Below, one piece after another: positions 14,331-53,580 of a stretch of 64,000 bases of DNA. Each line of letters starts with the position of its first letter. The first letter of the stretch is position 1. The notes beneath the pieces were generated by a model that saw only the letters and a list, made by a program, of their open reading frames with translations, ran no database searches and was not told where the DNA came from. Made by a program: the position numbers and the translations under genes. Location of the stretch: positions 5,666 to 69,665 of the forward strand of contig JAFQHU010000011.1 of the NCBI GenBank assembly GCA_017397845.1, in the 5' to 3' direction. The stretch comes from Clostridia bacterium. GTDB taxonomy: Bacteria; Bacillota; Clostridia; Oscillospirales; Acutalibacteraceae.

Positions 14331-16691
14331 ATGTTTTTATCAATGAACTGGATTTCAGACTTTGTTGATTTCGAAGGTCTCGACAAATTAGAGCTTATCC
14401 GCAGATTTTCTCTTTCAACAGCTGAAGTAGAAAATGAAATTTTCTTTAAAGGCTCCGATATCAGCGGTATCGTTGTAGCGGAAATCAAAAGTGTGGAGGA
14501 TCATCCCGAATCGAAAAAGCTTCATTTACTTAAGGTGGATGCAGGTGACGGACAGCTTACCGATGTTGTTTGCGGTGCTCCCAATGTAAGAGTAGGTATG
14601 AAGACTGCCTTTGCCAAAATCGGCGCTAAAATCGGCGAAATCGACATTACTCCCCGTGCTCTTGCCGGCTATACCTCCTACGGTATGTGCTGCAGTGAAA
14701 AGGAAGTAGGCATCAGTGACGACAATTCAGGTATTATGGACATCAGAGAGAATGTTGCCAACGGTACCGATATCAAGGACCTTTACCAGGTTGAAGATAT
14801 CGTGTTCGAGGTTGACAATAAATCTCTCACAAACCGTCCCGACCTTTGGGGTCACTACGGAATAGCCAGAGAATTTGCCGCCATCGCAGGCAGACCTCTC
14901 AAACCTCTCGAAACAGTTGATCTTTCTGAATATGACGGACTTAAAAAGATTGATATGAAAATCGAAGACAGCCTTTGTCAGAGATATTCCTGTTTGCAGG
15001 TGGAAAACATTACTGAAAATGTTAGCCCCGTGAATATGAAAATCCGTCTTTTCTACTGCGGAATGAGAAGCATCAATCTTCTTGCGGACCTTACAAACTA
15101 CCTTATGCTTGAAATGGGTCAGCCCATGCATGCCTTTGACTCAAGAAAGGTAGAAAAGCTCCGTATCAAACGCTTTGACGAACCCTTCACCTTCACTACC
15201 TTAGACGGTGCAGAAAGAAATATCGACGAAAACACTCTTATGATCTGTAACGGTGACATTCCTGTTGCCATCGCAGGTATTATGGGCGGTCTTGACTCTG
15301 AAATAGTGGAAGATACAACCACTCTTACTCTCGAATCAGCCACTTTTGATGCTGTTTCCATCCGTAAATCCACCGTCCGTCTCGGTCACAGAACCGATGC
15401 CTCCATGCGTTATGAAAAATGCCTTGACCCTGAACTGACGGTTCTTGCCATCGCACGTTTTGTAAAGCTTTTACAGGATATAGACTCAGGTGTGGAGGTT
15501 GTTTCATCGCTCACCGATGAAAGAGCCTTTGAATATGACCAAATCAATCTTACCTTCAATAAAAATTTCGTAGACCGTTATACAGGTATCGAGATTGACA
15601 ATGAAACCATCGTCAAAACTCTTACCTCTCTCGGTTTCGGTGTTGAATTAAGCGGTGAGGATTTCTCCGTTTCGGTTCCCTCATGGAGAGCCACCAAGGA
15701 TGTTACAATGAAGGCTGACATTATCGAAGAAATTACCCGTATTTACGGCTACGATAACTTCGATATTCACACCACAGCCACACCTCTTTATCCCGTTCGT
15801 CCCGCCGCTGAAAAGACAGTTGAGGACAGAATAAAGGATATTTTGGTAAAGAGATTTTCTCTTCACGAAGTACACTCCTATGTGTGGGCTTACTACGATG
15901 AATACAAGGCTTTGGGTATCGAGATTGAAGATAATGTAAAGCTTATGAATGCCACCAACCCCAATATCGAGGTTATTCGTAAATCTATCATCCCCACACA
16001 GCTTTGTCAGCTCAAAATGAACAACACCTTTGCTGCCGATTACGGTATTTTCGAAGTGGGCAGAGTGGTTGAAGGATACAGAGAAGACGGTCTGTGTAAT
16101 GAAAGAAAGAAGCTTGCTGTTTCACTTTTCAGCAAAACGAAATCTGTGGAAGCTCTCTATTTCGAGCTTCGTGATATTCTTCTCACTCTTGCCGCAGACA
16201 TAAAGCATCTTCCTCTCACCTTTAAGACTGCAGAGGCCGCTCACGGCTATGAGCATCCGAAAAATCTCAATACAATTATCTGTGACGGTAAAAAGCTCGG
16301 TAAAATCGGTCTCGTTTATCCCACCGTCCTTAAAAAGATAGACAAAAAGGCAAATATCGTTTGGGCAGAAATCGATGTAACAGATTTTGCTCTTATCGAA
16401 GCAGACAGCATTAAGTATGAAGAGCCCTCCAAGTTCCCCGGTATTGAAATTGACCTTTCCTTCGTAAGCAGCAAGTTCGCACCCATCGGTGAAGCAGTGA
16501 AGAATGCAAATTGCTCTCTTATCAAGGGTATCGATGTGGTTGACACTTATGAGGACGAAAACGGCAAATCAATCACTTCCCGTATTTACTTCGCACATCC
16601 TGAAAAGACTCTTACCAAAGAAGAGGTAATGGATGTGGTAAACGGTATTATTGCCGAGCTTGAAGGCAAGGGAATTGCTCTTAAGAAATAA
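14331..16691 (+). CDS. pheT: Phenylalanine--tRNA ligase beta subunit
   Basis: 786 aa. N-terminal MxxSxxWI...tRNA-binding domain (KLHLLKVDAGDG), followed by B3/4 and B5 regions. Immediately downstream of pheS. Confidence 0.95.
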   Translation: MFLSMNWISDFVDFEGLDKLELIRRFSLSTAEVENEIFFKGSDISGIVVAEIKSVEDHPESKKLHLLKVDAGDGQLTDVVCGAPNVRVGMKTAFAKIGAKIGEIDITPRALAGYTSYGMCCSEKEVGISDDNSGIMDIRENVANGTDIKDLYQVEDIVFEVDNKSLTNRPDLWGHYGIAREFAAIAGRPLKPLETVDLSEYDGLKKIDMKIEDSLCQRYSCLQVENITENVSPVNMKIRLFYCGMRSINLLADLTNYLMLEMGQPMHAFDSRKVEKLRIKRFDEPFTFTTLDGAERNIDENTLMICNGDIPVAIAGIMGGLDSEIVEDTTTLTLESATFDAVSIRKSTVRLGHRTDASMRYEKCLDPELTVLAIARFVKLLQDIDSGVEVVSSLTDERAFEYDQINLTFNKNFVDRYTGIEIDNETIVKTLTSLGFGVELSGEDFSVSVPSWRATKDVTMKADIIEEITRIYGYDNFDIHTTATPLYPVRPAAEKTVEDRIKDILVKRFSLHEVHSYVWAYYDEYKALGIEIEDNVKLMNATNPNIEVIRKSIIPTQLCQLKMNNTFAADYGIFEVGRVVEGYREDGLCNERKKLAVSLFSKTKSVEALYFELRDILLTLAADIKHLPLTFKTAEAAHGYEHPKNLNTIICDGKKLGKIGLVYPTVLKKIDKKANIVWAEIDVTDFALIEADSIKYEEPSKFPGIEIDLSFVSSKFAPIGEAVKNANCSLIKGIDVVDTYEDENGKSITSRIYFAHPEKTLTKEEVMDVVNGIIAELEGKGIALKK

Positions 16692-37039: not shown

Positions 37040-37759
37040 ATGAGTAAAATTTTTGCGCACAGAGGCTTTAGCGGTAAATATCCTGAAAACACTATGCTTG
37101 CTTTTGAAAAGGCTGTGGAAATCGGTGTTGACGGTATTGAGCTTGATGTTCATCTGACAAAGGATAATGAGCTTGTTATCATTCATGATGAAGATATAAA
37201 GCGCACCTGTGACGGTGAAGGTCTTGTAAAGGATATGACATTGGAGGAGCTGAGAAAATTTGATGCTTCCGCCACCTTCAAAGGTGTTTACGGCTTTTGC
37301 GGTATTCCGACCCTGAGAGAATACTTTGAACTCATTAAGGATACGGCAATCATCACAAACATTGAGCTTAAAACAGGTGTTTACGAATATCCCACAATCG
37401 AAAAAAGAACGGTTGATCTTATCAGAGAATACGGTATTGAGGACAGAATAATCTTTTCTTCCTTTAATCATTTCACAGTAAAGCGTTGTGAGAAAATTGC
37501 ACCCGATATTAAAAGAGGCTTCCTTACAGGCGACTGGCTCGTAGATTTCGGCAAATACACTGCCGAAAGAAATGTGCAGTGCTGTCATCCCTGGCATGTA
37601 ACCTTAAGTCAGGAGGTAATCGATGAAATGCACGCAGAAGGCAGAGAAATCAACACATGGACTGTTAATGAATATGAGGACATCGAAAGACTTGCCGCTA
37701 TGGGCGTTGATTCACTTATCGGTAATTTCCCCGACAGGATGATAGAAAAGTTGAGATAA
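37040..37759 (+). CDS. Glycerophosphodiester phosphodiesterase (GlpQ/UgpQ family), cytoplasmic type
   Basis: IFAHRGFSGKYPENT, GVDGIELDVHLTKD, IIHD motifs. 239 aa. Confidence 0.85.
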   Translation: MSKIFAHRGFSGKYPENTMLAFEKAVEIGVDGIELDVHLTKDNELVIIHDEDIKRTCDGEGLVKDMTLEELRKFDASATFKGVYGFCGIPTLREYFELIKDTAIITNIELKTGVYEYPTIEKRTVDLIREYGIEDRIIFSSFNHFTVKRCEKIAPDIKRGFLTGDWLVDFGKYTAERNVQCCHPWHVTLSQEVIDEMHAEGREINTWTVNEYEDIERLAAMGVDSLIGNFPDRMIEKLR

Positions 37760-37793
37760 GATATGACAGTTAATTACTGTTAACAGTATTGAC

Positions 37794-37822
37794 TTGAAAA
37801 TAATAGTCTGTAGTAGTATAAT
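37794..37822 (+). promoter_or_regulatory. Sigma-A type promoter for the glycosylation gene cluster
   Basis: TTGAAA (37794-37799), 17-nt spacer, TATAAT (37817-37822). Confidence 0.5.
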
Positions 37823-37852
37823 CTAAGTGTTTGATTTACGGAAGGAAAGATA

Positions 37853-39766
37853 ATGGAAAATTTATTAAATAAAAATCAGAAACAATGGTTTATATCGTTT
37901 CTTCTTGCTTCACTGACAGTTTTTTCGTACGGCTTAAAGATATCTCTGGCTGTTGTTCCTGAAAGTGTGACAGAACTGGAAATATATTCCTTTGCCCCCT
38001 TCAGGTTTATCACCGATATTATTTATTCGACTAAGGCACCTGATTGGTTTATGGTTTTGCTTTGTGCAGGCATGGCTTATCTGTATAATGAAAGGCTTTT
38101 TTGCAAAAGGAATGTGAAAAGCAGTGTCGCGATTACGGCAGTTTCTGCGGTTATTGTTTTTGCACTTCTGCTTTGTTACAGCTACAGCAACACCAATTCT
38201 TGGGATCTGGTTTTTGCGGGAAAGACAGTGTTTGCGAAGGCCTTGATAAAAGTTGCAGGCTTTACTCCTGCGGTGTTTATCGTTGTTGATTTTTTTGTGA
38301 ATCTTAATCTTGTAGTTACTCAGAATGAATCATATAAAGGTGAGCCTTTTAAAACCGTATTAATAACTGCCGCGGCTTTTATGCTGTGCTGGGTGCCGTA
38401 TTTCATTCTGCTTTATCCGGGATGTGTTACTAATGATGCTTTTGATCAGCTGGCACAGGCTATATATGCTCCTGGCTACTGCTGGAGTAAAAACACGGTA
38501 GTTCTTTTGGACGAAAGCGTTATACTTAATAACCATCATCCGCTATTTTACACTGGTGTTATGAAACTCACTGTAATGCTTGCTAAGGCTATGAATAATG
38601 CCTACGAAGCGGCCTTTGAGATTCTTTGTATTTTCCAGTCGCTGACTCTTGCGGTAACCTTTGCATATATGATTTATGTGATGCAGAAGAATAATGTCAG
38701 CAAACGTTACAGACTTGGAGTATTTTTATTCTGTGCCCTTAATCCGCTGTTCCCGATTTACGGGATGACGGTGGTAAAGGATACTTTCTTCTGTGCTATG
38801 TTTGTAGCGGTGGGAGTGCAGCTTTACGAGCTTCTTACACTTGAAAAAACCAGCATACAACGGTATGCAGTATTCTTTCTGACGGTTTTAATTTTCTTGT
38901 TTACACGAAATAACAGCGTGTATATTATGGGACTGATTGCATTGTGTGTAATTGTTCTTTATTTCAGAAGCAAGATAAAAATGATTAAAATAACAGCAAT
39001 AATTCTTGTACCTGTTATTTTATATCAGGTAGTATTCATCGGTATGATATGTCCTGCCTTTAGCATAACTCAGGGAAGTCCGCGTGAAATGCTTTCTGTT
39101 CCGTTTCAGCAGACGGCACGCTATATCAAAGAGCATCGCGATGAAATAACTCCGGAAGAGGAGGAGATAATCACTGCTGTTTTTAACTGCAATGATGATA
39201 TAGATACACTGACGGAGCTTTACGCAGGAAGTTTTGCAGATAATGTTAAGAACACCTTTAATAAGAACGCAACAAGTGAAGAACTCGTAAAGTATTTTAA
39301 AATGTGGTTCAGTTGTCTCATGAAGCATCCTATGACGTATGTAGAAGCTTATCTTAATCTTCATTACGGATGGTTCTCTTATGAAGGAAACAATTTCATT
39401 TCTTATGCATCGGTAGGAACCTGGTTCGGTGGGGAAATGATAAAGTCCTTTGAAGGTTATATGGGTAATAGTTCTATGAGAGCCATAGTAAGTAACGGTC
39501 TTGAATTTCTTAATAAAAGTCCACTTACATCACTGATGCTGGAAATGGCAACTTATACATGGCTATATCTGTTGCTTCTGTTCTACATCATAAAAAGAAA
39601 GAATAAATCGGGCTTTATAGTGTGCGGTCTGGCATTCTTTAACTACCTTATATCATTTGTAGGTCCTGTAGCCTATATGCGCTACGCTTTACCCATGGTG
39701 TGTCTTGCGCCTTTTGCAATATTCATAGTATTTAAAAAGAAAAAGGAGATTGAAAACAATGGATAA
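37853..39766 (+). CDS. Large polytopic membrane protein, candidate GT-C-type glycosyltransferase
   Basis: 637 aa with more than 10 TM segments and an extracytoplasmic-looking loop (DAFDQLAQA...NNHHPLFYT). It is translationally overlapped with the downstream GT2 gene. The function is inferred from context only. Confidence 0.45.
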   Translation: MENLLNKNQKQWFISFLLASLTVFSYGLKISLAVVPESVTELEIYSFAPFRFITDIIYSTKAPDWFMVLLCAGMAYLYNERLFCKRNVKSSVAITAVSAVIVFALLLCYSYSNTNSWDLVFAGKTVFAKALIKVAGFTPAVFIVVDFFVNLNLVVTQNESYKGEPFKTVLITAAAFMLCWVPYFILLYPGCVTNDAFDQLAQAIYAPGYCWSKNTVVLLDESVILNNHHPLFYTGVMKLTVMLAKAMNNAYEAAFEILCIFQSLTLAVTFAYMIYVMQKNNVSKRYRLGVFLFCALNPLFPIYGMTVVKDTFFCAMFVAVGVQLYELLTLEKTSIQRYAVFFLTVLIFLFTRNNSVYIMGLIALCVIVLYFRSKIKMIKITAIILVPVILYQVVFIGMICPAFSITQGSPREMLSVPFQQTARYIKEHRDEITPEEEEIITAVFNCNDDIDTLTELYAGSFADNVKNTFNKNATSEELVKYFKMWFSCLMKHPMTYVEAYLNLHYGWFSYEGNNFISYASVGTWFGGEMIKSFEGYMGNSSMRAIVSNGLEFLNKSPLTSLMLEMATYTWLYLLLLFYIIKRKNKSGFIVCGLAFFNYLISFVGPVAYMRYALPMVCLAPFAIFIVFKKKKEIENNG

Positions 39767-40712
39767 AATAGCAGTTCTTATTCCCTGTTACAACGAAGCC
39801 AAAACAATAAAAAAGGTTGTTGAGGATTTCAAATCAGCACTTCCGGACGATGCAGTAATTTATGTTTATGACAATAATTCCTCTGACGGCACTGCAGAAA
39901 TAGCCAAAGAAGCAGGTGCTGTGGTTCGTTATGAGCGTAAGCAGGGTAAGGGTAATGTAATCAGAAAAATGTTTTATGAAATAGATGCCGAATGTTATAT
40001 TATGGCTGACGGTGACGACACCTATCCTGCTGAAAGTGCAGGTGAGATGGCTGATAAAGTTCTCAGTGAGGGTGTGGATATGGTTATCGGTGACCGTCTT
40101 TCATCGACTTACTTTACTCAGAATAAGCGTCCCTTCCATAATTTCGGTAACGATTTGGTAAGAAAGAGTATAAATCTGCTTTTCAAAAGTGATATAAAGG
40201 ATATCATGACCGGCTATCGCGCCTTTAGCTATCGTTTCGTTAAATCATTTCCGCTGCTTTCAAAAGGCTTCGAAATTGAAACTGAAATGAGTATCCACGC
40301 AGTGGATAAGAACATGACTTTGGAAAATGTGGTAATCGAATATCGTGACCGTCCTGAGGGCAGTGAGTCAAAGCTTAACACCATTTCAGACGGTATCAAG
40401 GTTCTCAGAACCATAGTTCGTCTTTTCAGAAACTATAAACCTCTCAGATTTTTCGGTATTATTGCCGCTGTTCTTGCGATTCTGAGCATAGGCTTCTTTA
40501 TTCCCGTTCTGGTGGAATACATTAAAACAGGACTCGTACCTCATTTCCCTACTCTCATCGTGTGCGGTTTCACGGCTGTTGCTGCTATACAGTCTCTTTT
40601 TTCGGGTCTGATTCTTGAAAATATACAGCAGAAAAACAGACAGGACTTTGAGATGGCTCTTATTAATATAAGACATCATTATCTGGAGAAAAAAGGTGCA
40701 GACGATGATTGA
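39759..40712 (+). CDS. Family 2 glycosyltransferase, polyprenyl-phosphate sugar synthase type (GtrB/CsbB-like)
   Basis: IAVLIPCYNEAKTI, YDNNSSDGT and MADGDDTYP (DxD) motifs, plus two C-terminal TM helices. ATG 39759 with SD AAAGGAG overlaps the upstream stop codon. Confidence 0.85.
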   Translation: MDKIAVLIPCYNEAKTIKKVVEDFKSALPDDAVIYVYDNNSSDGTAEIAKEAGAVVRYERKQGKGNVIRKMFYEIDAECYIMADGDDTYPAESAGEMADKVLSEGVDMVIGDRLSSTYFTQNKRPFHNFGNDLVRKSINLLFKSDIKDIMTGYRAFSYRFVKSFPLLSKGFEIETEMSIHAVDKNMTLENVVIEYRDRPEGSESKLNTISDGIKVLRTIVRLFRNYKPLRFFGIIAAVLAILSIGFFIPVLVEYIKTGLVPHFPTLIVCGFTAVAAIQSLFSGLILENIQQKNRQDFEMALINIRHHYLEKKGADDD

Positions 40713-41100
40713 GCTTATAAAACAGTTAGTTAAGTTTGGCTTTGTTGGTGGTATTTGCTTCGTAATAGACTATGGAGTGATGGTGCTGCTCACAGAGGTG
40801 GCAGGGATGGAATATCTTCTTTCCTGTGGAATATCCTTTACTGTTTCTGTTATTGCGAATTATATTCTGAGTATGAAGTTCGTTTTTGAAAGAAAAGATA
40901 ATATGGACAGAAGGGTAGAGTTTATAATTTTTGTAATTATGAGCGTTATAGGTCTGGGTTTAACGGAGCTTCTTATGTGGGTATTCGTTGACAAGGCTGA
41001 TATTCATTATATGATTTCGAAGATAGTAGTTACGGCCATAGTTATGGTATATAACTTTGTTACTCGAAAGATTTTTTTAGAAAAGAAAAAAAGTTCATAA
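40696..41100 (+). CDS. GtrA family membrane protein (polyprenyl-phosphate-sugar flippase-like)
   Basis: 134 aa, four TM segments, LVKFGFVGGICFVIDYG N-terminus and YNFVTRKIF C-terminus typical of GtrA. The start is either GTG 40696 or ATG 40705. Confidence 0.8.
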   Translation: MQTMIELIKQLVKFGFVGGICFVIDYGVMVLLTEVAGMEYLLSCGISFTVSVIANYILSMKFVFERKDNMDRRVEFIIFVIMSVIGLGLTELLMWVFVDKADIHYMISKIVVTAIVMVYNFVTRKIFLEKKKSS

Positions 41101-43247: not shown

Positions 43248-43318
43248 ATCAACAATAGCGGAGGTATACGTTTTTTTTGTCGTGTGCCGAGTATACGACG
43301 GATGAAAGGAGTGTAATT

Positions 43319-43702
43319 ATGAAGAGAAGATATATCTTTTTATGGTATATTTCCATCGGCTTATTTATTGTTTCGTTGGTTCCTTTTGTCGATTTTATGT
43401 ATCATACGAATTTCAGTACGATGCGGACTCTCGTTATATGTATATCTGTAGCTACATTATGTTATGTAATCAGCACCAAACAAATAACTTATCCTGAGGG
43501 CTACACTGCTATACAGGCTATGAGCTTTTATAGGCGGTGTAAAAAAGAAGGGATAAGTAAACCGGAGCAGTGCAGAAAGAAAACCGTTAAAATGAAAGAA
43601 ACAGCATTAAAATTCGAATTTTCTAAAAAATTAGAGCTTGACGGTTTGCTTGAGTTGTATGAAAAAGGATATGAACTTTTAAACGGAAAGGAAAACAAAT
43701 AA
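43319..43702 (+). CDS. Small membrane protein (2 TM + basic/helical tail), hypothetical
   Basis: ATG 43319 with SD GAAAGGAG. Two hydrophobic segments are followed by a Lys/Glu-rich C-terminus. Confidence 0.5.
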   Translation: MKRRYIFLWYISIGLFIVSLVPFVDFMYHTNFSTMRTLVICISVATLCYVISTKQITYPEGYTAIQAMSFYRRCKKEGISKPEQCRKKTVKMKETALKFEFSKKLELDGLLELYEKGYELLNGKENK

Positions 43703-43705
43703 TTT

Positions 43706-44428
43706 ATGTATATAGCTATTCATATTATTTCAATAATAATTGCCCTCGCTTTCAGTGGGTATCACGGATATAAGCTCGGTATCGGAAAAGCAAAATCAGT
43801 TCTGATTTCCGTTTTTTGCCTTATGACCTGTTATATTTTTGTCAGTGCGATACCATGGTTTGAAAGCGGTGAAATCGGCTCTCTCAATATGGTGAAAATT
43901 TATGCCTTTACCCCGCCTTTTTATTTCCTGGCAAGCAAGGTTTTCAAAGTACCCTTCAGAAATGTGTGCGACCTTAACGGTATATGGCCTATGATTCTTT
44001 TCGGTCTTTCTCATATGGCTTGCCTGATTCCTAAGTGTTGTGGCGGTTATGTGTATCTCGAAGGAACGAAAATGTGTGCTTTGGCACAGGCTCTCACAGG
44101 AACAAATATGATACCGAATCAGCTTATGGAGTCCATAGCAGGTCTGATTATTGCTTTGGCAATGTTCATTCTCGCATATAAAAAAGACTTTAAACTTAAC
44201 GGCAGACACTATTTTATAATGATAATTGTTTACGGTATTCAGAGATTTTTCTGGGAGTTCCTCAGAAATAATAATAAGATAATAATATTCGGAGAAATGA
44301 CCAACGCCGAAAGCGGTTATTTCGGCTTGTCTGACCTTTCTTTTTACTGTATAGCGATGATAGCGGTCGGCGTAGTATTCATTATTGCACTTAATATTAT
44401 TGATAAGAAAAAGGGTAAAGAAAATTAA
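43706..44428 (+). CDS. Polytopic membrane protein, weakly Lgt-like
   Basis: 240 aa, about 6-7 TM segments. YGIQRFFWEFLRNN resembles the Y-G-x-x-R-F-x-x-E-F-x-R motif of prolipoprotein diacylglyceryl transferases. Other Lgt motifs were not recognised. Confidence 0.45.
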   Translation: MYIAIHIISIIIALAFSGYHGYKLGIGKAKSVLISVFCLMTCYIFVSAIPWFESGEIGSLNMVKIYAFTPPFYFLASKVFKVPFRNVCDLNGIWPMILFGLSHMACLIPKCCGGYVYLEGTKMCALAQALTGTNMIPNQLMESIAGLIIALAMFILAYKKDFKLNGRHYFIMIIVYGIQRFFWEFLRNNNKIIIFGEMTNAESGYFGLSDLSFYCIAMIAVGVVFIIALNIIDKKKGKEN

Positions 44429-44499
44429 GTTATTTATAGTTTTTATTTAAACTTTAAATATAAAAATATGAATACAGGAGGTGTGTCAGTTCAAACCGA

Positions 44500-44547
44500 T
44501 TACTCATTCTGAATGAGTAACAACCGAATACTCATTTAAAATGAGTA
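44500..44547. promoter_or_regulatory. Tandem palindromes (candidate operator or 5'-UTR hairpins) upstream of the giant ORF
   Basis: TTACTCATTC-T-GAATGAGTAA (44500-44520, perfect 10-1-10) and TACTCATTT-A-AAATGAGTA (44529-44547, perfect 9-1-9). They are embedded in a ~29-nt direct duplication (CAAACCGATTACTCATT... / CAACCGAATACTCATT...). Confidence 0.45.
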
Positions 44548-44578
44548 AAGTTCCGAAATTTTTAATAGGAGGAAAATC

Positions 44579-47500
44579 ATGTTAGTAACAAAAAGAGAAG
44601 TTAAGCAAACTTCTAAAAAGCTTTTAAGTGTGTTACTTGCGGTCATTATGATTATGACCAGCATGAGCGTATGCTTCGGCACTGTATCCTTTGCCGCAGG
44701 TAAGGATGTGGATGTAACTGCACTCGCTGACGCACTTAAGTATGACAGCATTAAAAATGCATCATTCTCCGGCTCGGCCAATAACTATACAGTCAGTGAC
44801 CCTGACGGTAAAGTTCTTGCGGCAGTAGATGCTTATTTTGCAGTAGTAGATGCTATGGCAAATAAGACACCTACAAATCAGAACCCTTCTACAGGTACAT
44901 CCAGTACCAATCAGACTGGTGAATCATCTGACAAAACCTACAGAACCATCAACCATCTTAATGCCAGAGTAAAAACTCTTCTCAGCAATAAGATGGGCGG
45001 TGACTACACTACATATAATGTGGATGCTTTCATCACAGGTCTTTTGGCAGGATCAACAGTCAGTGAAGGAACCTCAAAGAAAACTGTAGGTCCCGCTACA
45101 TCAAACAACACCGCAAAACCTGCTACACCTCTTGCTGCTGCTCCCGATGTGAAGCTTACGGTTATGATGGAAAGTGCTGTTACGGGATACACTCTTGATA
45201 CTCTTCCCGACAGCGTAGTTACATCAAAGACCTACACAGTAAAGCACGCTAATACAAACTATGATTATAAGTTTACTTATACAGCAGCTACAAAGGATAG
45301 TTGCGGTAACAGTAACAATGATCAGAAGTATCAGCATGACTATTGGTTCTACTATAACTACAGCTCATATTCAGCAGAAGACGGCGCTTCTAAGTCTACA
45401 CAGACTATCAAAAACACACAGTCTACTCTGGAGACTTACGCTGACTATTTCTCAATGGGTATGGATGCGCTTTATGCTGTTCCTGCCTCCACTCTTGACA
45501 CAGTAAGCACTGCTGTGAAAAATGCTAAAGCAAATGTCGTCAGCGGCTTTGGTGCAGGTGTTTACTCTCACTTCTTCTCATCTTATAATGTGGAGAAGCT
45601 TACAGGTGACATCATTATCGCTAAAGAAATCCAGGTTCTTGCTCCCAAACTTCTCAAAGCTTACGAGGAGATGGAAAAGGGCTACGATGATATCATTAAC
45701 GATAAAGACGCTCTTAACACCCTCGCACAGACTGTGAAGACAGCTATGGATGCTTATGATGCAGCCTCTGCAGATGCTAAGACCTATGTTACAGAGGCAG
45801 GCTTCATCCGCACTGAAGCAGCAACCTTCTACAGCAAGGTTCTCCGTGAAATCGAGCTTATCGAGCTTCGTGAGCTTGTTGAAGAAATTACAGAAGGTAT
45901 CAAACCTTATGCTTTCTATACTGAAGACGGTATCGATGAAGGTACAGTAACATCAAAGATGATCGGTGATGCTCTTACTGCTGTTAGCGGTTATCAGACC
46001 CGTCTTGCAAAGTACAATACTGCAGATGTTGATGACATTAATCCCGGTATACGTGGCGGACTTTTTGATCTTAAGAATGTTCTTAATACTCTCAGCGTAG
46101 CTGCCGGCTATAATGATCAGTTCAGTGCACAGTATGCAAAATTTGCTTCTGAAATCTTCTCCGTAACCGATGCAAACGGTGACATCGGAACTCTTCTTTC
46201 CGCTCTTCAGAGCTATGACGGCTGGTACACAGGTCTTAAGTCTCTTATCGCAGAAATGAAATCAGTTCTCGGTGAAGAGCTCGCTGACAAGCTCTTTGAT
46301 GACCTTAACGATGTTATGACAGAGCGTATGGATGATGCTTATGTAGCACTCAATGCTCTTCTTGAAGCACAGATTGACTATGCTTACGATCTCTTTAAGG
46401 CATACACAAGTGCCTATGGCGAAAAGGTTAGCATGGCAACTGTTTCCGAGTATAGAGCCATGCAAGCTTCGATTGGTCTTATAAATGCTGATGCTTACAG
46501 CTTGCTTAACGGCACAGCCAACTTTGAAATTTCCGATGAAGCAGTGGCTAAGTACGAAGAAATGCAGAAGGATTTCCCTGAATATGAGGAATTCCTTGAC
46601 AGTCACGGCTTCTCGACCTATCAGCAGACATTTATGCCTGACCTCGAGAGACCCGACACAGAAAAGGATATCGCCCGTGAAAACGAGGATGGTGTTTACA
46701 AGACATCCGATGCAGAAATCGAAAAGATAATCAACCTTCTCGATAATCTTCTTCAGAACGATGCTGTAAAGGAACTTCTCGGTTCTCTTATTAATAAGGA
46801 TGAGGAAACAGGTGAGCCTACAGGTGAGCCCTTTGATATTGCAGACCTTATTTCCGGTCTTCTCGAAGATGTGGTTTATACTGACAGTCTTATCAACACC
46901 ATCGTTCAGTATGTATATCCTCTCGTTTGTAAGGAATTTGCAAAGGTTTGGGCAGGTCTTCCCTCCACATTCACAGCATTAGGTGTTGAAACGGGTGTTT
47001 CTCTTGCTCCTACAGCCGATGTTAAGGATTGTCCTCTTTATCTCGACGATGTAGAAAAAGCTATCGGATCAGTAGGTGTTTATCTCTCTCCCGTTAAGCT
47101 CGCTGAAAATCTTAAGAAAAATAACGATTATAAAGGCTATACTCAGGTAATTGCAAAGCTCGAATCTGCTACTACTAAGGCAGTTTATAACCTCAACGGT
47201 GAAGGTGATGCTGACGATACTTTCCAAAATCCCTGGGAAGATGCAAATCTTTTCACTAATGTTTATGATGAAGTAACAGGTGAACAGGTATTCAATGACG
47301 ACGGTACACCCAAGCAGGTCTACGACCTTAATTGGGGTGTAGATGAAGCTACCGATAAGAAAGCTGCATTTATCAACGCAGCTTGTGCAGCTCTTTCGGG
47401 TCTTGAACCTCTTCTTATGGCTATCATCGCTGATACCACTTATGTTAACCCAAATACAACAGGCACAGATGCCCGCGGATCAAAAATCGGTACAGGTAAG

Positions 47501-50500
47501 GGTACAGCACAGGTAAAGGGTCTTGGTTTCATTCCCATCACACTTACTCTTAATATCGATCCCATCACTCTTGTTCTTAACTTCCAGGGTAACGATGGTT
47601 GGGACAACGCTCTTGCTCCCATTTTTGAAGCTCTCGGCCTCACCAATATTCCTCATAGCCATGAGCTTAATACCACCAGAAAGCTTCTTGAAAAAGGTCT
47701 TTTTGCTATGATTGACCAGCTTATCAGTAAGGTAGCAGAAGCTCCCGTAACCTTCATTCTTGAGGCTCTTCCGAATCTTGCTTATGCTCTTGAGGGTGGT
47801 CTTGTTGAGCCTCTTCTGAGTATGCTTAAGACAGAAATCAGCTACTATGCTGACGCTGCATACACAGGTACTCTTGGTGATAATCAACTTGCAGCAAGTG
47901 TTCTTAAGGAAGCCATGAAATCAGAAGAACCTATCAAGATTAACATCGGTGAAATGATTAACCTTGAGGATATGGGTCTCGACATCAGCTCCTTCCAGGC
48001 TATTTGGGATATGATCGCAGGCGGCGTTGAGCTTCTCGCAGGTATGGAAGCTCCCGATGCAGGTAAGATCGCAACTATGGGTAAACTCGTAGAGAGAAAC
48101 ACCAACAGAAGCGCTAAAACCTATAACCACGGCTCAGCAGACAAAGCTTACCACATCGAAGCTAACAAGGCAGACGTTCTTGTATATCTTCTTAAGTATG
48201 TTCTCGGCAGCGGTCTTATCGACGGACTCGTAGAGAATCCCGAAGGTATCATAGCTGACCTTCTTACAAATCTCAATGAAAATCCCGATGTAATTCTTGC
48301 TGCGGTTGTCGAGCTCTTCAATCAGAAGGAATATGACACTCTCAGAAACTTCGAATGGTTCGAAGGCTATATTAACGGTGAATCCGTGATAGGTAACTCA
48401 GCTAACGCTATTTACCTTAATCCTGAAAACGATTGGACCGAAGAGAAGGCACAGTATCTTTATGAAAACCTTGATTCTATCGTATCTGCTGTCCTTACTA
48501 TGGCTAAGCTCGACCTCGATAAGGAAACAGAGGAGCTTGAAACACTCGGTGATTTCATCGGCGGTGCTATCGGCGGTCTTCTCAGTGACAAGACACTCAC
48601 AGCTCTTGCTAAGCTTCTCGGAAGCCTCGCTGACATTAACAGCCTCATCGCAGGCGAAGATGCTGCAGAGCCTCTTCCAGTTGATGTTGCAGCTCTCCTC
48701 ACAGAATTCCTCGGCATTGATTTGAGCGTTTACGCTGACTATGCAGACATCGCAGAAGATGAAATCGTTGACTTCGGCGTAGATGCAGGTACAGTTACCT
48801 TTGCTGAGGCTCTCGCTGATATGCTCGCACCTCTTTCTCCCGTTCTTGACTTCATTCTCGCAGGTGAAAACCTCGTTATCACCGTTGAAGACGAAACAGT
48901 AGAGCTTGTAGGTTATGACGGCTATAACAACGCTATCATTCCTATTCTTGAAGCTCTCGGCTGTGATGTTGCAGTAAATCCCGAAAACGCACTTGAAGCT
49001 GTTATCACAGCTCTTATGGGCAAGATTGAAGCTATCACAAAGTCAGAAACACTCATCAAGGATATCATCGATCTTCTTCCCGGTGTATTCTATTTCATCG
49101 CATCTAAGGGCCTTTCAGTTTCCGTAAGAAACCTTCTCCAGCCCGTATATGTAATCCTAGATACCGTCAGACCTGTATTTGATCTTGACCTCAATGCTAC
49201 CATCAATGATCTTCTTCCCGAAGACTTCGGCATTATGCTCAATATCGATGATATCGGTCTTGACCTCGTATTCGATCTTCTTAAGAAGTTCGTTCCCGAA
49301 CTTGACCTTTCAGGTCTTAAGGATGTTATCTATGACATCTGCTACAATGTAGGCACTGAATATGAATCCGTTTCCACACTCCAGGATAATTGGAAGAAGG
49401 GTGCATTCGGCGATAATTTCAGCGCTGCTGACCTTCTCACAGTAGTTCTTTCATTCGTTCTCGAATGGGCTACCGTCGAAGAAAACGGAGAAAAGCTCGA
49501 CGAAATGCTCGGCACAGAAGATCTCATCGCAAATATCGGTAAGGTATTTGAGGATGTAGAAATTGCATACGGTACACCGAATTGGATGTATTGGTTCGCA
49601 ACAGAGGAAGAATTCAATTCCTATGTGGAGGGTAACACAGAGCTTCCCAATACACTTCTTTCTCTCACATATCCTAACGATTGGTCAGAGGAGGCAGCTG
49701 CTTATATTGCTGACAACCTTGCTTCTCTCGTTGATATGGTGATTTCTCTCATCGAAATCGACGGCACCAAGTACGCTTCGGTTGCTGAACTTATTGATGC
49801 GAAGCTCGATGTATTCAATGCTGAAACAATCAACAGCATCATTGGTCTTATCGCAGACCTTCTTAAGGATGTAGACGATAATCTCCTTTCAGTAGGTTAT
49901 CTTCTCGATGTAGATGTAGTAGGTCTTAAGAACTACACATGCACAGCAGAAATCACTGACGTCAAGTCCTTTACTCAGGAACTCGCAAACATTCTTACAA
50001 AATACGCACACGGTCTCGTTAACTGGCTCTTCTTTGGTGATGACTTCAGATTTGCTAAGAAGTCTGACAAGACAGATACTATTGTAATCAACGGTGGCGA
50101 AGGCTATGAAAAGGGTCTTGCTCTCGTTCTCGAAGCACTCGGCTGTGACCTTCCCGAAAAGGCAACAACCGAAACAGTTCTTCTTGCTCTTGCTGCAAGA
50201 GTTGAAGAAATCCTTGCTTCTCCCGTAAACGAAGTTATAGACCTTCTTCCCAATCTCGTTTACTTCCTTAACGCTGACGGTGCATCCGTAGCCGTTAATA
50301 ACCTTCTCGCTCCCGTTTATGCACTTCTCGATAAGCTCGCAGTGCTTGGCGTTGAGCTTGATCTTGCAACTCTTCTCGGCTTCGACCTTAAGTATCTCTC
50401 ACTTGCAGATATCCTTGCTCTCGTTAAGGATAAGACAGGTCTTGACATCTCTGCAGCTGAAGAAATTCTCGTAAATCTCTGCTTCGGTAAAATTGAACAG

Positions 50501-53461
50501 GCAGAATATACTTACAAAATGGTTGCAGAAAGAAAAGATGTTGTAACAGTTGTTCTTACCACAGCACTTCTTCTTGTTAAAGATGAGGACTTTGCAGCCA
50601 AACTCGAAGAAATGATGGGAACAGAACTTATTTCTGCGATTGTTGAAGTATTTGAATCCGCTCCCGTAACCTATAAGACACCTGATTGGTATGCTCTCGA
50701 TGAAAGCGATATCGATTATGATAACGAAACAGTCGGCGTAATCAAGTATGCTATCACTTATCCTAACAACTGGACGGAAGAAAGTGCCAAGTATCTTGCT
50801 GACAATCTCGTTTCCGTCGGAGATATGGTTGCAGGCATTATCGACAGCAACTATGATTCTCTCGGTGCACTTCTCGCTGACAAGGTAAATATCTACACGG
50901 CAGATACTCTTAAGGCTATTCAGAATCTTCTCGGTGATCTCATCGGCGGCCTTGATGAAAATCTTAAAGAACTTGTAAATGTAGGTCTCGGCGCTGCAGA
51001 TGCACTCCTCGGTGCAGATGTTCAGGGTCTTCTGGATTACGATGTATCCTCCGTAAATGATAAGGCATCCTTTATAGCTGCCCTTACCGGCATGCTTATG
51101 GAGGTTGAGGGTCTTGTTGACTGGCTTCTTCTCGGTCAAAGCTACGAGCTCTTTGTTGATGACGTAAATGCAAACGGTGTATATGATGAAGGCGAAGCAA
51201 TCATCACACTCAATGGCGGTCACGGTTATGCTGAAGGTCTTGCACTTGTACTCGAAGCACTTGGTGTCGAAAATCTTCCCGATGTTTATGCGATGGAAGA
51301 AATCGATACCGAAGCAGTGGTAGGTGACGTTCTTAACGCTGTATTTGACAGAGTTGACGCTGTCTTCAATAACCCCGTGGAAGAAGTATTCGAAATTCTT
51401 CCCAATGTTCTCTATTTCATCAATGCAAACGGACTTACCGTAGCAATAGAAAACCTCATCGGTGCCGTAAACGCACTTCTCATCAAGCTTGAAGGCTTAG
51501 GTGTTGAGCTTGATATTGCATCTCTTGTAAACTTCAGTGAAATTCTCGGTGTTGAAACTGAGCTTGCTCTTGATAACATCACAATAGAAGCCGTGATTGA
51601 TCTCGTTGCTGAGCTTACAGGTCTTAACCTTGATGCGGTTGCAGATGTACTTGTCGGCTTTGCACTTGGCAGAGTTGCCGCTTATGATTCAGTAAGCAGT
51701 GCAGACATCACAGCGAAAATGTATTATCACGATGATTTCGCCAAATATGATATGATCACCGTGCTTGCTACAGTAGCCATTATCATCCTTACAGATGAAG
51801 CTAATGCTGAAAAGGTTAAGGATATGCTCGGTGAAGATATTTATCAGGTAGTACTCAATCTTGTAAATATGGGCGAAGTTGAAATTCAGGAATTCAATTG
51901 GATGTTCACAAGTGAAGAAACCGGCGGTAACAGAGTTGGCGAAACCTTCTCTGCACTCGAAAGCTCCGAAGTCTTCGCAGGACATTCCTACGGTCCCACC
52001 TTCACAGAGGAAATGGCTCAGTACATCGCTGATAATTTTGGCAAATTTGTAGATAATGTTATTTACCTTCTCGGTATTGACATTAACAGCGACGGAAAGG
52101 CAGAGACTAACCTTACAGAAACCATTAACAGCTTGCTTAACGGTTCGCTTTACAATAGTGAAAATGTAATTGCTGTCCGTGATGCTCTTGCGGGTGTGCT
52201 TGCAAATCTTACAGAGCTTCAGGTTAACGGCAAGGTAGTAGGCGGTCTTATCGCTGACGTTCTCAAAACAACAGGTATCGCAGATATCGCAGCAGTAGCT
52301 GAAGTTGAAATTCCCGAATTCAAAGAAGACAGAGCACAGTTTGTTGCCTTTCTCTGCGATGTTCTTGAACCTCTTTACGGTATACTCAGATACGTTCTTG
52401 CTGACGAAGATTTCACCTTCTTCGTAAATGCAGAAAAGAGCGATGCGATCACTCTTAAGGGTGCAGAAGGCTATGCATACGGTATCCTTCCTCTTCTCGA
52501 AACTCTCGAATGTGAAGGCATACTTGCTCCCGCTGATTACTATGCTGCTGTAGAGGCTGACGGTGATGTGCTTCTCACATCCATCCTTAATCCTCTTCTT
52601 GACAGAGTAGATGTAATTCTTGAAGCTCCTGCAGATGAAATTCTTGCGATGCTTCCGAACCTTATCTACTTCATCAATTCAAACGGTGTTGACACAGTAG
52701 TCAAAAACACACTTAATGCAGTCTATGCACTTCTTGCTGCTATTGAGCCGATTGCCAAGATTGATCTTTATGAGCTTATCGGTGTAGATCTTGCCGTAAT
52801 TGATTTCGAATGGCTTCTCGATAAGCTTCTCGAAGTAATCAAAGATGCTACAGGCTACGAATTCACTGTCGAAGATATCGACTATATCTTGGAGCTTACT
52901 GTCGGTAAGCTTGAAGCTTACGATTCACTTAACGGAAAGACCGCTTATAAGATGGTTTATTCAGAGGGTGAAATCGGTGACTCAAAAGAGCTTGTGGTTG
53001 TCGTACTCAGACTCATAGTAACCTTTATCGCAAATGAGAACAACGCTGAGCTTCTCGTAGGTCTTCTCAGAGATAATCTCGGTATGTCTGCAGAGGTAGA
53101 GGAATTTGTTCGCGGACTTCTCACCGTTTTGGTTGAATGTATTTCCGGAACTAAGCTCGGTGTCGATGTTGCACTTTCCACTCTTTACTATGTATTCTTC
53201 GGTATAGATAAGGGTGTAGGAGAAGCAGTCGGCGGTACAAAAACACTTGATCAGCTTTGGAGAGATGCTTTGTCCGACCTCAGAAGAGAAAATGAGGGCG
53301 TGGCAGACATGATTGAGGATATTCTCGGTTGGGATATCTTTGAGGATGTTATTTCTCCCGACGGCATCGCTCCCAACGGACTTATCGCATTCTTCCAAAA
53401 GATTATATCCTGGTTCCAGACAATCGTAGCATGGTTCAAAAGCTTCTTTAAAATAGCTTAA
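44579..53461 (+). CDS. Giant secreted acidic repeat protein, 2,960 aa, function unknown
   Basis: Uninterrupted 8.9-kb ORF with SD AGGAGG (44567-44572). Signal-peptide-like N-terminus KKLLSVLLAVIMIMTSMSVCFGTVSFAAG, five internal ~375-440-aa modules, and the amphipathic C-terminus LIAFFQKIISWFQTIVAWFKSFFKIA. Confidence 0.85.
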   Translation: MLVTKREVKQTSKKLLSVLLAVIMIMTSMSVCFGTVSFAAGKDVDVTALADALKYDSIKNASFSGSANNYTVSDPDGKVLAAVDAYFAVVDAMANKTPTNQNPSTGTSSTNQTGESSDKTYRTINHLNARVKTLLSNKMGGDYTTYNVDAFITGLLAGSTVSEGTSKKTVGPATSNNTAKPATPLAAAPDVKLTVMMESAVTGYTLDTLPDSVVTSKTYTVKHANTNYDYKFTYTAATKDSCGNSNNDQKYQHDYWFYYNYSSYSAEDGASKSTQTIKNTQSTLETYADYFSMGMDALYAVPASTLDTVSTAVKNAKANVVSGFGAGVYSHFFSSYNVEKLTGDIIIAKEIQVLAPKLLKAYEEMEKGYDDIINDKDALNTLAQTVKTAMDAYDAASADAKTYVTEAGFIRTEAATFYSKVLREIELIELRELVEEITEGIKPYAFYTEDGIDEGTVTSKMIGDALTAVSGYQTRLAKYNTADVDDINPGIRGGLFDLKNVLNTLSVAAGYNDQFSAQYAKFASEIFSVTDANGDIGTLLSALQSYDGWYTGLKSLIAEMKSVLGEELADKLFDDLNDVMTERMDDAYVALNALLEAQIDYAYDLFKAYTSAYGEKVSMATVSEYRAMQASIGLINADAYSLLNGTANFEISDEAVAKYEEMQKDFPEYEEFLDSHGFSTYQQTFMPDLERPDTEKDIARENEDGVYKTSDAEIEKIINLLDNLLQNDAVKELLGSLINKDEETGEPTGEPFDIADLISGLLEDVVYTDSLINTIVQYVYPLVCKEFAKVWAGLPSTFTALGVETGVSLAPTADVKDCPLYLDDVEKAIGSVGVYLSPVKLAENLKKNNDYKGYTQVIAKLESATTKAVYNLNGEGDADDTFQNPWEDANLFTNVYDEVTGEQVFNDDGTPKQVYDLNWGVDEATDKKAAFINAACAALSGLEPLLMAIIADTTYVNPNTTGTDARGSKIGTGKGTAQVKGLGFIPITLTLNIDPITLVLNFQGNDGWDNALAPIFEALGLTNIPHSHELNTTRKLLEKGLFAMIDQLISKVAEAPVTFILEALPNLAYALEGGLVEPLLSMLKTEISYYADAAYTGTLGDNQLAASVLKEAMKSEEPIKINIGEMINLEDMGLDISSFQAIWDMIAGGVELLAGMEAPDAGKIATMGKLVERNTNRSAKTYNHGSADKAYHIEANKADVLVYLLKYVLGSGLIDGLVENPEGIIADLLTNLNENPDVILAAVVELFNQKEYDTLRNFEWFEGYINGESVIGNSANAIYLNPENDWTEEKAQYLYENLDSIVSAVLTMAKLDLDKETEELETLGDFIGGAIGGLLSDKTLTALAKLLGSLADINSLIAGEDAAEPLPVDVAALLTEFLGIDLSVYADYADIAEDEIVDFGVDAGTVTFAEALADMLAPLSPVLDFILAGENLVITVEDETVELVGYDGYNNAIIPILEALGCDVAVNPENALEAVITALMGKIEAITKSETLIKDIIDLLPGVFYFIASKGLSVSVRNLLQPVYVILDTVRPVFDLDLNATINDLLPEDFGIMLNIDDIGLDLVFDLLKKFVPELDLSGLKDVIYDICYNVGTEYESVSTLQDNWKKGAFGDNFSAADLLTVVLSFVLEWATVEENGEKLDEMLGTEDLIANIGKVFEDVEIAYGTPNWMYWFATEEEFNSYVEGNTELPNTLLSLTYPNDWSEEAAAYIADNLASLVDMVISLIEIDGTKYASVAELIDAKLDVFNAETINSIIGLIADLLKDVDDNLLSVGYLLDVDVVGLKNYTCTAEITDVKSFTQELANILTKYAHGLVNWLFFGDDFRFAKKSDKTDTIVINGGEGYEKGLALVLEALGCDLPEKATTETVLLALAARVEEILASPVNEVIDLLPNLVYFLNADGASVAVNNLLAPVYALLDKLAVLGVELDLATLLGFDLKYLSLADILALVKDKTGLDISAAEEILVNLCFGKIEQAEYTYKMVAERKDVVTVVLTTALLLVKDEDFAAKLEEMMGTELISAIVEVFESAPVTYKTPDWYALDESDIDYDNETVGVIKYAITYPNNWTEESAKYLADNLVSVGDMVAGIIDSNYDSLGALLADKVNIYTADTLKAIQNLLGDLIGGLDENLKELVNVGLGAADALLGADVQGLLDYDVSSVNDKASFIAALTGMLMEVEGLVDWLLLGQSYELFVDDVNANGVYDEGEAIITLNGGHGYAEGLALVLEALGVENLPDVYAMEEIDTEAVVGDVLNAVFDRVDAVFNNPVEEVFEILPNVLYFINANGLTVAIENLIGAVNALLIKLEGLGVELDIASLVNFSEILGVETELALDNITIEAVIDLVAELTGLNLDAVADVLVGFALGRVAAYDSVSSADITAKMYYHDDFAKYDMITVLATVAIIILTDEANAEKVKDMLGEDIYQVVLNLVNMGEVEIQEFNWMFTSEETGGNRVGETFSALESSEVFAGHSYGPTFTEEMAQYIADNFGKFVDNVIYLLGIDINSDGKAETNLTETINSLLNGSLYNSENVIAVRDALAGVLANLTELQVNGKVVGGLIADVLKTTGIADIAAVAEVEIPEFKEDRAQFVAFLCDVLEPLYGILRYVLADEDFTFFVNAEKSDAITLKGAEGYAYGILPLLETLECEGILAPADYYAAVEADGDVLLTSILNPLLDRVDVILEAPADEILAMLPNLIYFINSNGVDTVVKNTLNAVYALLAAIEPIAKIDLYELIGVDLAVIDFEWLLDKLLEVIKDATGYEFTVEDIDYILELTVGKLEAYDSLNGKTAYKMVYSEGEIGDSKELVVVVLRLIVTFIANENNAELLVGLLRDNLGMSAEVEEFVRGLLTVLVECISGTKLGVDVALSTLYYVFFGIDKGVGEAVGGTKTLDQLWRDALSDLRRENEGVADMIEDILGWDIFEDVISPDGIAPNGLIAFFQKIISWFQTIVAWFKSFFKIA
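47588..53461 (+). repeat. Five divergent protein-level tandem modules inside the giant ORF
   Basis: Anchor motifs begin at nt 47588, 48911, 50093, 51215 and 52460: GNDGWDNALAPIFEALG, GYDGYNNAIIPILEALG, GGEGYEKGLALVLEALG, GGHGYAEGLALVLEALG and GAEGYAYGILPLLETLE. Confidence 0.75.
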
Positions 53462-53542: not shown

Positions 53543-53580
53543 AAAAAAATACAGCCGGAATACTACGGCTGCATTTTTTC
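53543..53580. terminator. Bidirectional terminator (serves the minus-strand rubredoxin operon)
   Basis: CAGCCG / CGGCTG stem flanked by an A7 run and a T6 run. Confidence 0.55.

Follow-up and report, generated by a model that had tools for sequence, protein, structure and literature searches.

A family of giant modular proteins with predicted export signals in uncultured gut Clostridia

In a stretch of 64,000 nucleotides (nt) from the genome of a Clostridia bacterium (assembly GCA_017397845.1, contig JAFQHU010000011.1, positions 5,666 to 69,665 of the forward strand; hereafter the window, in whose own numbering all positions are given), a single gene encodes a protein of 2,960 amino acids (aa) without any known domain or fold. 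The gene is native, conserved and under purifying selection, and its product belongs to a large, previously undescribed family of giant, probably surface-located proteins that is so far found only in uncultured gut Clostridia. I give about even chances to the idea that the protein serves as a C-terminally membrane-tethered, length-tunable, acidic surface fibril, which would work much like the staphylococcal giant Ebh while being built from new parts.

The gene covers 8,883 nt (44579..53461, forward strand), runs without an internal stop through 13.9% of the window, and is by a wide margin the longest open reading frame (ORF) of the region. The initial annotation, made from the letters of the sequence, had described an uninterrupted frame of about 14% of the window with a canonical Shine-Dalgarno sequence, a signal-peptide-like N-terminus and a strongly acidic composition rich in Ala, Leu, Val, Asp and Glu, and all of this is borne out on measurement. 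The sequence AGGAGG at 44567-44572 lies six bases ahead of the ATG at 44579, the N-terminus (MLVTKREVKQTSKKLLSVLLAVIMIMTSMSVCFGTVSFA/AG) is the sole strongly hydrophobic, transmembrane-like stretch of the protein, and the predicted product of ~320 kDa carries a net charge of -294, with Leu (12.3%), Ala (10.4%), Val (8.5%), Asp (8.3%) and Glu (7.9%) as noted. Codon choice had earlier been taken to argue for a native gene rather than junk or a recent import, next to AT-richer membrane genes. In agreement with this, the relative synonymous codon usage (RSCU) of the gene correlates with that of the other window genes at 0.88, compared to 0.88-0.90 for large housekeeping ORFs, and its guanine-plus-cytosine (GC) content is 0.436 overall and 0.383 at third codon positions (GC3), while the two small genes directly upstream are AT-richer (GC 0.345 and 0.375). 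Horizontal import of the gene is ruled out by this composition, whereas strong expression, also read into the codon choice at first, does not follow from it. The ratio of nonsynonymous to synonymous substitutions (dN/dS) is 0.19-0.26 against five orthologues (2,456-2,926 codons) and lies below 0.4 in each region of the protein.

That the frame is spurious or mis-assembled, a concern also raised at the outset, can be regarded as refuted. The gene and the 1,300 nt upstream of it are identical across three independent assemblies (one from ENA and two from Logan), and there are hundreds of full-length homologues in addition to the low dN/dS. Because the internal repeats at the DNA level are merely 51 nt long and have diverged to 73-75% identity, collapse or expansion of the assembly is no concern, and together with the three identical assemblies these repeats rule it out.

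Searches for known domains returned nothing for the window protein, in line with the earlier impression that it lacks any recognisable adhesin or enzyme motif. Pfam gave no family at E <= 0.1 over the whole protein; NCBIfam, PHROGs and PADLOC gave no match either, the latter two covering phage and anti-phage defence models, and PDB sequences searched with the protein and with a profile of the family yielded nothing. The scans of Pfam and NCBIfam contained none of the wall-binding domains SLH, CWB2, choline-binding, LysM or GW, and the Pfam scan none of the FIVAR, GA-module or DUF1542 repeats of Ebh and Embp. Regular expressions found no RTX, YD, HExxH, CxxC or Walker A motif, and no match to LPxT[GAN] or NP[QK]T[NG]; an LPXTG-type sortase substrate would carry such a motif ahead of a hydrophobic segment and a basic tail at its C-terminus. 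Neither regular expressions nor profiles detected the RTX repeat GGxGxD, Rhs/YD repeats, or the glucosyltransferase and cysteine-protease domains of clostridial toxins. Nine other members of the family likewise had no Pfam match at the cut-offs used, and a precomputed PF26098 flag on one relative, P0096, was not reproduced when that protein was rescanned with Pfam. A search of the literature for descriptions of such a protein family found none. As a side observation, two relatives that end in a transmembrane helix show acyl-carrier-protein-like matches within their last module (P0216 at aa 1614-1679 and P0221 at aa 2360-2434), of ~22 bits against a cut-off of 84; I judged these probably compositional, both being acidic helical bundles.

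Self-comparison of the protein resolves five tandem copies of a module of 363-439 aa, with 25-39% mutual identity, so that the repeat modules mentioned in the initial annotation are indeed present. The modules have in common the motifs W[ST]EExAxYxADNL, GxxGYxxGLxPxLEALG and LPNLxYFxNxNG, and a hidden Markov model (HMM) of the module matches them. With the predicted local distance difference test score (pLDDT) as the measure of confidence in the structural models, the layout from N- to C-terminus is as follows.

44579..44695, forward strand: aa 1-39, signal peptide, probably cut by signal peptidase I at VSFA/AG
44696..45148, forward strand: N-terminal region, aa 40-190, with low-complexity linkers rich in Ser, Thr, Asn and Pro, read from the translation
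45149..45403, forward strand: aa 191-275, a small domain resembling a beta-sandwich (strands between residues 2 and 84 of AlphaFold2 model m83744731414b)
45404..46648, forward strand: aa 276-690, very long helices packed in a bundle, with a weak likeness to spectrin (helix length 30-48 residues, pLDDT 80-92)
46649..48415, forward strand: pre-module region and divergent module 1 (M1), aa 691-1279 (module HMM match at aa 841-1279)
48416..49663, forward strand: module 2 (M2), aa 1280-1695 (self-comparison, module HMM)
49664..50752, forward strand: module 3 (M3), aa 1696-2058 (self-comparison, module HMM)
50753..51982, forward strand: module 4 (M4), aa 2059-2468 (self-comparison, module HMM, AlphaFold2 model mabd5b16de700)
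51983..53218, forward strand: module 5, aa 2469-2880 (self-comparison, module HMM, AlphaFold2 model)
53219..53377, forward strand: C-terminal linker, aa 2881-2933 (translation, AlphaFold2 model)
53378..53458, forward strand: aromatic amphipathic helix GLIAFFQKIISWFQTIVAWFKSFFKIA, aa 2934-2960, a proposed membrane tether that carries a motif of the family

Two AlphaFold2 models were built on 27-sequence alignments of the family, and both are confident: the model of aa 2010-2960 has a pLDDT of 79.8 and a predicted template-modelling score (pTM) of 0.69, and that of aa 190-1240 a pLDDT of 80.4 and a pTM of 0.55. According to DSSP the two models consist of 56-60% helix and 6-16% strand, which agrees with the initial description of the protein as largely alpha-helical and adds real beta elements in its N-terminal third. 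Each module is predicted to comprise ~17 helices and two beta-hairpins, and the model places two long beta-hairpins in the region before and within M1. Foldseek found no match at E <= 0.001 for either model in the PDB, or for the N-terminal model in the viral library BFVD. The top match of one model was a HEAT/ARM solenoid, at E 0.059 and a template-modelling score (TM-score) of at most 0.16, and the top spectrin-repeat match was 3edv_B, at E 0.2, a probability of 0.77 and a target TM-score of 0.26, in the long-helix region only. Neither is significant (E 0.06-0.2, TM-score <= 0.26), and both probably reflect generic helical similarity; the protein does not group with the HEAT/ARM solenoids, given E >= 0.059 and the beta-hairpins that its modules also hold. 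With no match in PDB or BFVD, the predicted ~400-aa module is a candidate new fold.

The family is large. A word-indexed search yielded 101 homologues of 1,676-4,662 aa, only one of which does not exceed 2,400 aa; all are annotated as 'hypothetical', with a Pfam domain listed for P0096 alone. Scanning the GTDB species representatives gave at least 130 species with a relative. The best 80 loci all come from metagenome-assembled genomes (MAGs) labelled Acutalibacteraceae, Oscillospiraceae, Ruminococcaceae or just Clostridia, from the guts of goat, sheep, yak, deer, buffalo and human (Hadza) hosts. A profile of the five window modules was searched against 1.84 billion representative proteins; E <= 1e-3 admitted 568 clusters (50% identity), and the stricter E <= 1e-30 still 341. 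The longest of these proteins has 7,691 aa, as many as 20 module matches fall in a single protein, and protein length follows module number closely (r = 0.90). Seven MAGs carry two paralogous giant genes on different contigs (L040+L047, L020+L030, L016+L063, L008+L058, L043+L057, L062+L074 and L067+L078). In one relative, P0298, two modules precede a bona fide Big_2 Ig-like domain (E 6.9e-15), a domain typical of bacterial surface proteins. The earlier label of an orphan thus holds in that no relative has been characterised, and fails in that there are hundreds of homologues. The proposal of a new family of extracellular or envelope proteins is upheld by the missing domain and fold matches together with the signal peptides, C-terminal anchors and the Big_2 domain among the relatives.

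Identity between orthologues is distributed unevenly over the protein. Compared to the window protein, P0002 is 85-93% identical in modules 2-5 and drops to 52-57% in the pre-M1/M1 region; in P0023, M1 has 79% identity and M2-M4 have 42-44%; and P0032 shows ~20% identity over the first 690 aa and 79% in M4. The pre-M1/M1 region is thus 50-57% identical in some orthologues with ~80-93% in M2-M4, a mosaic, cassette-like pattern that suggests recombination or exchange of cassettes inside the gene. Module 5 is 63-71% identical in every compared homologue except the closest, and in more distant homologues the N-terminal parts fall to 30-43%, with 65-68% in the last module. Variable distal parts on a conserved base are the pattern that would be expected of an exposed, recombining surface protein.

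Both termini of the protein are conserved in a way that bears on its location. The N-terminal hydrophobic stretch has a Kyte-Doolittle value of 2.45, and signal peptides of the family are of the Sec type and read KKxLSVxLAxxM..., with an AxA-like cleavage site behind; a simple heuristic recognises a signal-peptide-like N-terminus in 195 of the 242 proteins of the family. No other segment is as well conserved as the signal peptide, which has a mean identity of 80% against 52-70% in all other regions. A Cys stands at the end of the hydrophobic region, mostly in MSVCFG, in 133 of 183 signal peptides (73%), and in the other 50 (27%) it is replaced by Ala, Gly or Ser. At the other end, the motif NGxIxFFQKIxxWFxxIxxWFKNLF is kept through most of the family and is predicted to form a helix, with heptad-like hydrophobic spacing and a polar face of Lys, Asn and Gln. 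Eight distant relatives have a transmembrane helix and a tail rich in Lys and Arg (of the KKKK type) in place of this aromatic helix. A third type of C-terminus, ...VVSQVLGMLQGDxDTVIxSLVELLQSLAG, takes the place of the aromatic helix in one branch, with P0285, P0286, P0297 and P0101. From these comparisons the anchoring appears to differ across the family. Because a transmembrane helix and basic tail take the place of the aromatic helix in eight relatives, the C-terminus is probably the membrane-proximal end, and the substitution suggests that the aromatic amphipathic helix serves the same anchoring role as the transmembrane helix of these relatives.

The 5' leader of the giant gene (44440-44578) has an architecture common to about 30 loci (among L004-L063), with these elements in the window, to which a possible terminator is added.

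44449..44466, forward strand: putative AT-rich promoter-like element AAACTTTAAATATAAAAA, conserved in related leaders
44476..44481, forward strand: Shine-Dalgarno-like AGGAGG without a start codon, ~100 nt before the real start, a recurrent motif
44500..44520, forward strand: hairpin 1 of the leader fold (TTACTCATT/AATGAGTAA)
44529..44547, forward strand: hairpin 2 of the leader fold (TACTCATT/AATGAGTA), with the same arms as hairpin 1
44567..44572, forward strand: Shine-Dalgarno AGGAGG of the giant gene, with GGAGGAAAAAACATG nearly invariant in leaders of the family
53552..53571, forward strand: terminator-like hairpin with a T run behind it, 91 nt past the stop codon, from a consensus scan only

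In many related loci the AT-rich element lies 10-15 nt upstream of the GGAGG of the leader, and GGAGG-N-GAT(A/T) is found at the equivalent position in 28 related leaders. Since hairpins 1 and 2 share their arms, alternative pairings are possible. Related leaders contain one to five hairpins, which differ in sequence yet are self-complementary, followed by an A/T-rich tract before GGAGGAAAAAACATG. Compared to shuffled controls, the leaders have a mean folding z of -2.25, with 73% below -1.5, and in a separate fold the window leader has a z of -2.5. Rfam has no match in the leader of the giant gene, and RNAalifold returned no consensus pairs when 25 leaders were aligned with MAFFT, since such an alignment does not bring the hairpins into common columns; the structure is supported per sequence only. 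The leader may act as an mRNA stabiliser or as a cis-regulatory RNA. A precedent for a stabiliser is the STAB-SD element of the cryIIIA mRNA, and by analogy the upstream GGAGG could stabilise the 9-kb transcript.

The giant gene is chromosomal and lies amid housekeeping and envelope genes. The genes upstream encode, in order, DnaE, GDPD, DUF6020, a family-2 glycosyltransferase, GtrA, a metallophosphoesterase, a CBAH-family hydrolase, a 141-aa protein and an Lgt-like protein; downstream, on the opposite strand, rubredoxin, rubrerythrin and a Fur-family regulator are followed by genes for the biosynthesis of aromatic amino acids. The two nearest upstream genes are the following.

43277..43702, forward strand: 141-aa predicted membrane protein, no match in Pfam or NCBIfam
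43706..44428, forward strand: divergent membrane protein of the Lgt family (PF01790), 240 aa, Pfam LGT match at E 2.8e-12 in its C-terminal half only

Clustering of all neighbours across 74 loci revealed only two recurrent partners, an Lgt-family gene and the pair of an OmpR-type regulator and a histidine kinase; no sortase gene was among them. The Lgt-like gene of the window ends 151 nt before the giant gene, on the same strand, and such a gene adjoins upstream in the same orientation in 22 of the 60 loci with enough upstream sequence (~37%), sometimes duplicated in tandem. Its product differs from canonical Lgt, as the NCBIfam equivalogs score 34-39 bits against cut-offs of 119-334. The Lgt-like proteins have invariant cysteines (C106, C111 and C112) in a motif [RKH]xGCxxxGCCxG (C-x4-CC-x-G), which presumably sits where the signature GRxGNFxNxE of Escherichia coli Lgt lies, with the C-terminal Y..R..E..R kept. 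They form two subtypes, of which the Lgt-like protein of the window represents type A, paired with a small protein of ~130-141 aa. Homologues of the 141-aa protein sit ahead of the Lgt-like gene in L012, L015, L063 and L006. Type-A Lgt-like homologues also occur beside a sulfotransferase gene with no adjacent giant gene (L087-L089), and there the Lgt-like gene is preceded by a small ORF that is similar by size alone. Whether the 141-aa protein is a member of the giant-gene system is uncertain. The link with the Lgt-like gene is thus real but facultative. The idea of the giant protein as a classical lipoprotein-type substrate is weak. The lipobox pattern [LVI][ASTVI][GAS]C does not match the sequence M-S-V-C, which has Val at position -1, and a reading of MSVC as a substrate site for Lgt is further weakened by clades that have lost or lack the Cys yet retain an Lgt-like neighbour, and by the Lgt-like genes found without an adjacent giant gene.

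The regulator and a kinase of ~350 aa are encoded divergently upstream of the giant gene in 26 of the 74 loci (e.g. L005 5127-6925, reverse strand) and are absent in the window. The kinase has two transmembrane helices with at most ~15 residues between them and is thus of the intramembrane-sensing type. A response regulator also adjoins the giant gene in the distant branch with transmembrane anchors (L090 6067-6786). Two further observations concern the window itself. An envelope cluster at 37040-41100, upstream of the giant gene, comprises a GDPD phosphodiesterase, a 637-aa DUF6020 membrane protein, a family-2 glycosyltransferase and a GtrA-like protein, a layout which I take to resemble three-component systems for the glycosylation of teichoic acids or glycans. 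A T-box leader (13004-13214; Rfam RF00230, 115 bits) lies upstream of ORFs at 13260-14312 and 14331-16691, the sizes of which fit pheS and pheT.

As a tethered surface fibril of a Gram-positive gut anaerobe, the protein would be exported by the Sec pathway, lose its signal peptide by cleavage, and then be retained at the outer face of the cytoplasmic membrane via the C-terminal aromatic helix. A rod of five ~400-residue alpha/beta modules would project outward, tipped by a variable N-terminal head of a beta-sandwich and a long-helix bundle. The number of modules would set the length of the fibre, and the exposed, recombining distal parts would bind ligands, sterically shield the surface, or both, in the manner of Ebh. 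A promoter-like element of its own and a structured 5' leader belong to the gene. The Lgt-family protein and the intramembrane-sensing two-component system, found nearby in about a third of related species, suggest that regulation and maturation are linked to the cell envelope. I infer the topology, the exposure through the wall and a function as adhesin or shield from this combination of features. The initial annotation had favoured a scaffold, which is one possibility; an exposed surface fibril, adhesin or shield fits at least as well, because the distal parts are mosaic and fast-evolving and the number of modules is variable. On a wider view, the genes would form a new envelope system of uncultured gut Oscillospirales, with giant fibres of structurally novel ~400-residue modules, a new kind of aromatic amphipathic anchor, dedicated Cys-rich Lgt paralogues that mature or hold the protein, and expression switched by the intramembrane-sensing two-component system via the leader, producing a length-tunable, recombining negative coat; I consider this broader picture unlikely as a whole. 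If it were true, such a coat would govern adhesion, aggregation, or the access of phage and host immunity.

Several observations weigh against a membrane-tethered fibril. The C-terminal helix of the window protein is amphipathic, with a mean Kyte-Doolittle value of 1.09, and is not a transmembrane anchor with a basic tail; it is predicted as helical at a pLDDT of only 53-64, and it could instead drive oligomerisation or the binding of a partner. The ...LVELLQSLAG helix in the third group of relatives is not membrane-like, and the window protein has no Pro/Thr-rich, wall-spanning segment beside the proposed anchor. The rod shape is deduced from the tandem modules alone, and the window protein shows no recognisable ligand-binding domain. 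About two thirds of the loci lack the Lgt-like gene, and about as many lack the two-component system, which is missing from the window too; no cultured carrier was found among the relatives. Some of these points would agree with a released, self-associating matrix or S-layer-like protein, an acidic, cation-binding lattice or biofilm matrix that is held together by coiled-coil bundles of the tails. Its tail has a heptad-like a/d/e spacing and too little hydrophobicity for a transmembrane helix, the protein is extremely acidic and lacks a wall-anchoring motif, and some relatives have a terminal helix that is not membrane-like. However, eight relatives end in a clear transmembrane helix with a Lys/Arg-rich stop-transfer tail, which argues for a C-terminus at the membrane, and lattice- or wall-binding domains such as SLH and CWB2 are missing. 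I regard the released matrix as unlikely.

Alternatively, the protein may be a scaffold close to the membrane, a client or partner of the Lgt-like enzyme, which would lipid-modify or hold it; between membrane and wall it would buffer cations or organise wall synthesis, and an envelope-stress two-component system would switch it on. The recurrence of two Lgt-family subtypes directly upstream, the intramembrane-sensing type of the kinase, the exceptional conservation of the signal peptide (80%) with its Cys in 73%, and the envelope genes just upstream in the window (family-2 glycosyltransferase, GtrA, DUF6020 and GDPD) are all compatible with this. I nevertheless think it improbable, as MSVC with its Val at -1 is not a canonical lipobox, 27% of the relatives have Ala, Gly or Ser for the Cys and the Cys-less L032 keeps its Lgt-like neighbour, type-A homologues occur apart from giant genes, linkage is seen in only ~37% of loci, and mosaic variation suits an exposed protein better than a hidden one. 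A secreted toxin or contact-dependent effector against competitors or host cells would also be large, carry a secretion signal, evolve as a mosaic and have paralogues. This explanation is disfavoured and would be very surprising: no toxin, Rhs, RTX, peptidase or glycosyltransferase domain is present in the protein, no gene resembling an immunity gene recurs downstream, conservation is greatest where a variable C-terminus would be expected, and the gene sits amid chromosomal housekeeping genes with no match to PADLOC or PHROGs. The tethered surface fibril remains the preferred reading.

Acutalibacteraceae and Oscillospiraceae are abundant and mostly uncultured in the gut of ruminants and humans, and next to nothing is known of their surface biology. 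A gene of 9-23 kb under purifying selection in more than 100 species represents a large cellular investment, and the giant protein likely shapes attachment to plant fibre, mucus and other cells, and likewise recognition by phage and the immune system. The module marks a gap in the domain databases, and a Pfam-style model of it would annotate hundreds of 'hypothetical' giants. That giant genes recurrently lie beside genes for non-canonical proteins of the Lgt family may point to roles of this enzyme family other than the classical maturation of lipoproteins.

Giant repetitive surface proteins of Gram-positive bacteria are a kind already known. No precedent has been described for the module, the C-terminal anchor, the association with Lgt-like and two-component genes, or the restriction to uncultured gut MAGs of the Oscillospirales type. 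With LPXTG adhesins such as SasG, SraP and the MSCRAMMs the window protein has in common a signal peptide, a stalk of tandem repeats, a variable distal head and, as proposed, an attachment at the C-terminal end, but it has no LPXTG motif, no Ig-like, Cna-B or G5 domains, no serine-rich repeats and no recurrent sortase neighbour. Giant proteins of Oscillospiraceae and other Clostridia have been described with RCC1 beta-propellers, Listeria-Bacteroides repeats, YG repeats or dockerins (bioRxiv 10.1101/2023.11.21.568195). Like the window protein, these come from metagenomes of gut Clostridia, are very large and are predicted to be extracellular, but Pfam finds none of their domains in it. The 'Hodor' megaplasmid giants, which are plasmid-borne and sortase-associated and contain S-layer or MBG domains (bioRxiv 10.64898/2026.02.21.707213), resemble it in size, signal peptide and origin in gut Clostridia, whereas the window gene is chromosomal and its product has no S-layer or MBG domain. 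The long antiparallel helices of aa 276-690 recall spectrin and HEAT/ARM proteins, a similarity that is no evidence of homology. With Lgt-modified lipoproteins the window protein shares a Cys where the hydrophobic part of the signal peptide ends, and an adjoining Lgt-family gene; in contrast to these, Val occupies position -1, the Cys is dispensable in 27% of relatives, and the neighbour, with its Cys-rich motif, falls far below the cut-offs for Lgt.

Ebh and Embp of Staphylococcus, of ~1.1 MDa, are mostly alpha-helical, repetitive, exported by a signal peptide and held in the membrane at the C-terminus. The window protein is likewise giant, helical and repetitive, with a signal peptide and a proposed C-terminal hold in the membrane. 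It differs from them in having no FIVAR, GA or DUF1542 domain and no Foldseek match, in its mixed alpha/beta modules of ~400 aa compared to helical repeats of 126 aa, in a proposed anchor that is an aromatic amphipathic helix instead of a transmembrane helix, and in being far more acidic. Giant staphylococcal surface proteins including Ebh are controlled by a two-component cascade and, as a steric shield on the cell, block adhesion and clumping in a size-dependent manner (PMC6548404). By analogy, Ebh of Staphylococcus aureus would be the closest functional analogue of the giant protein described here.

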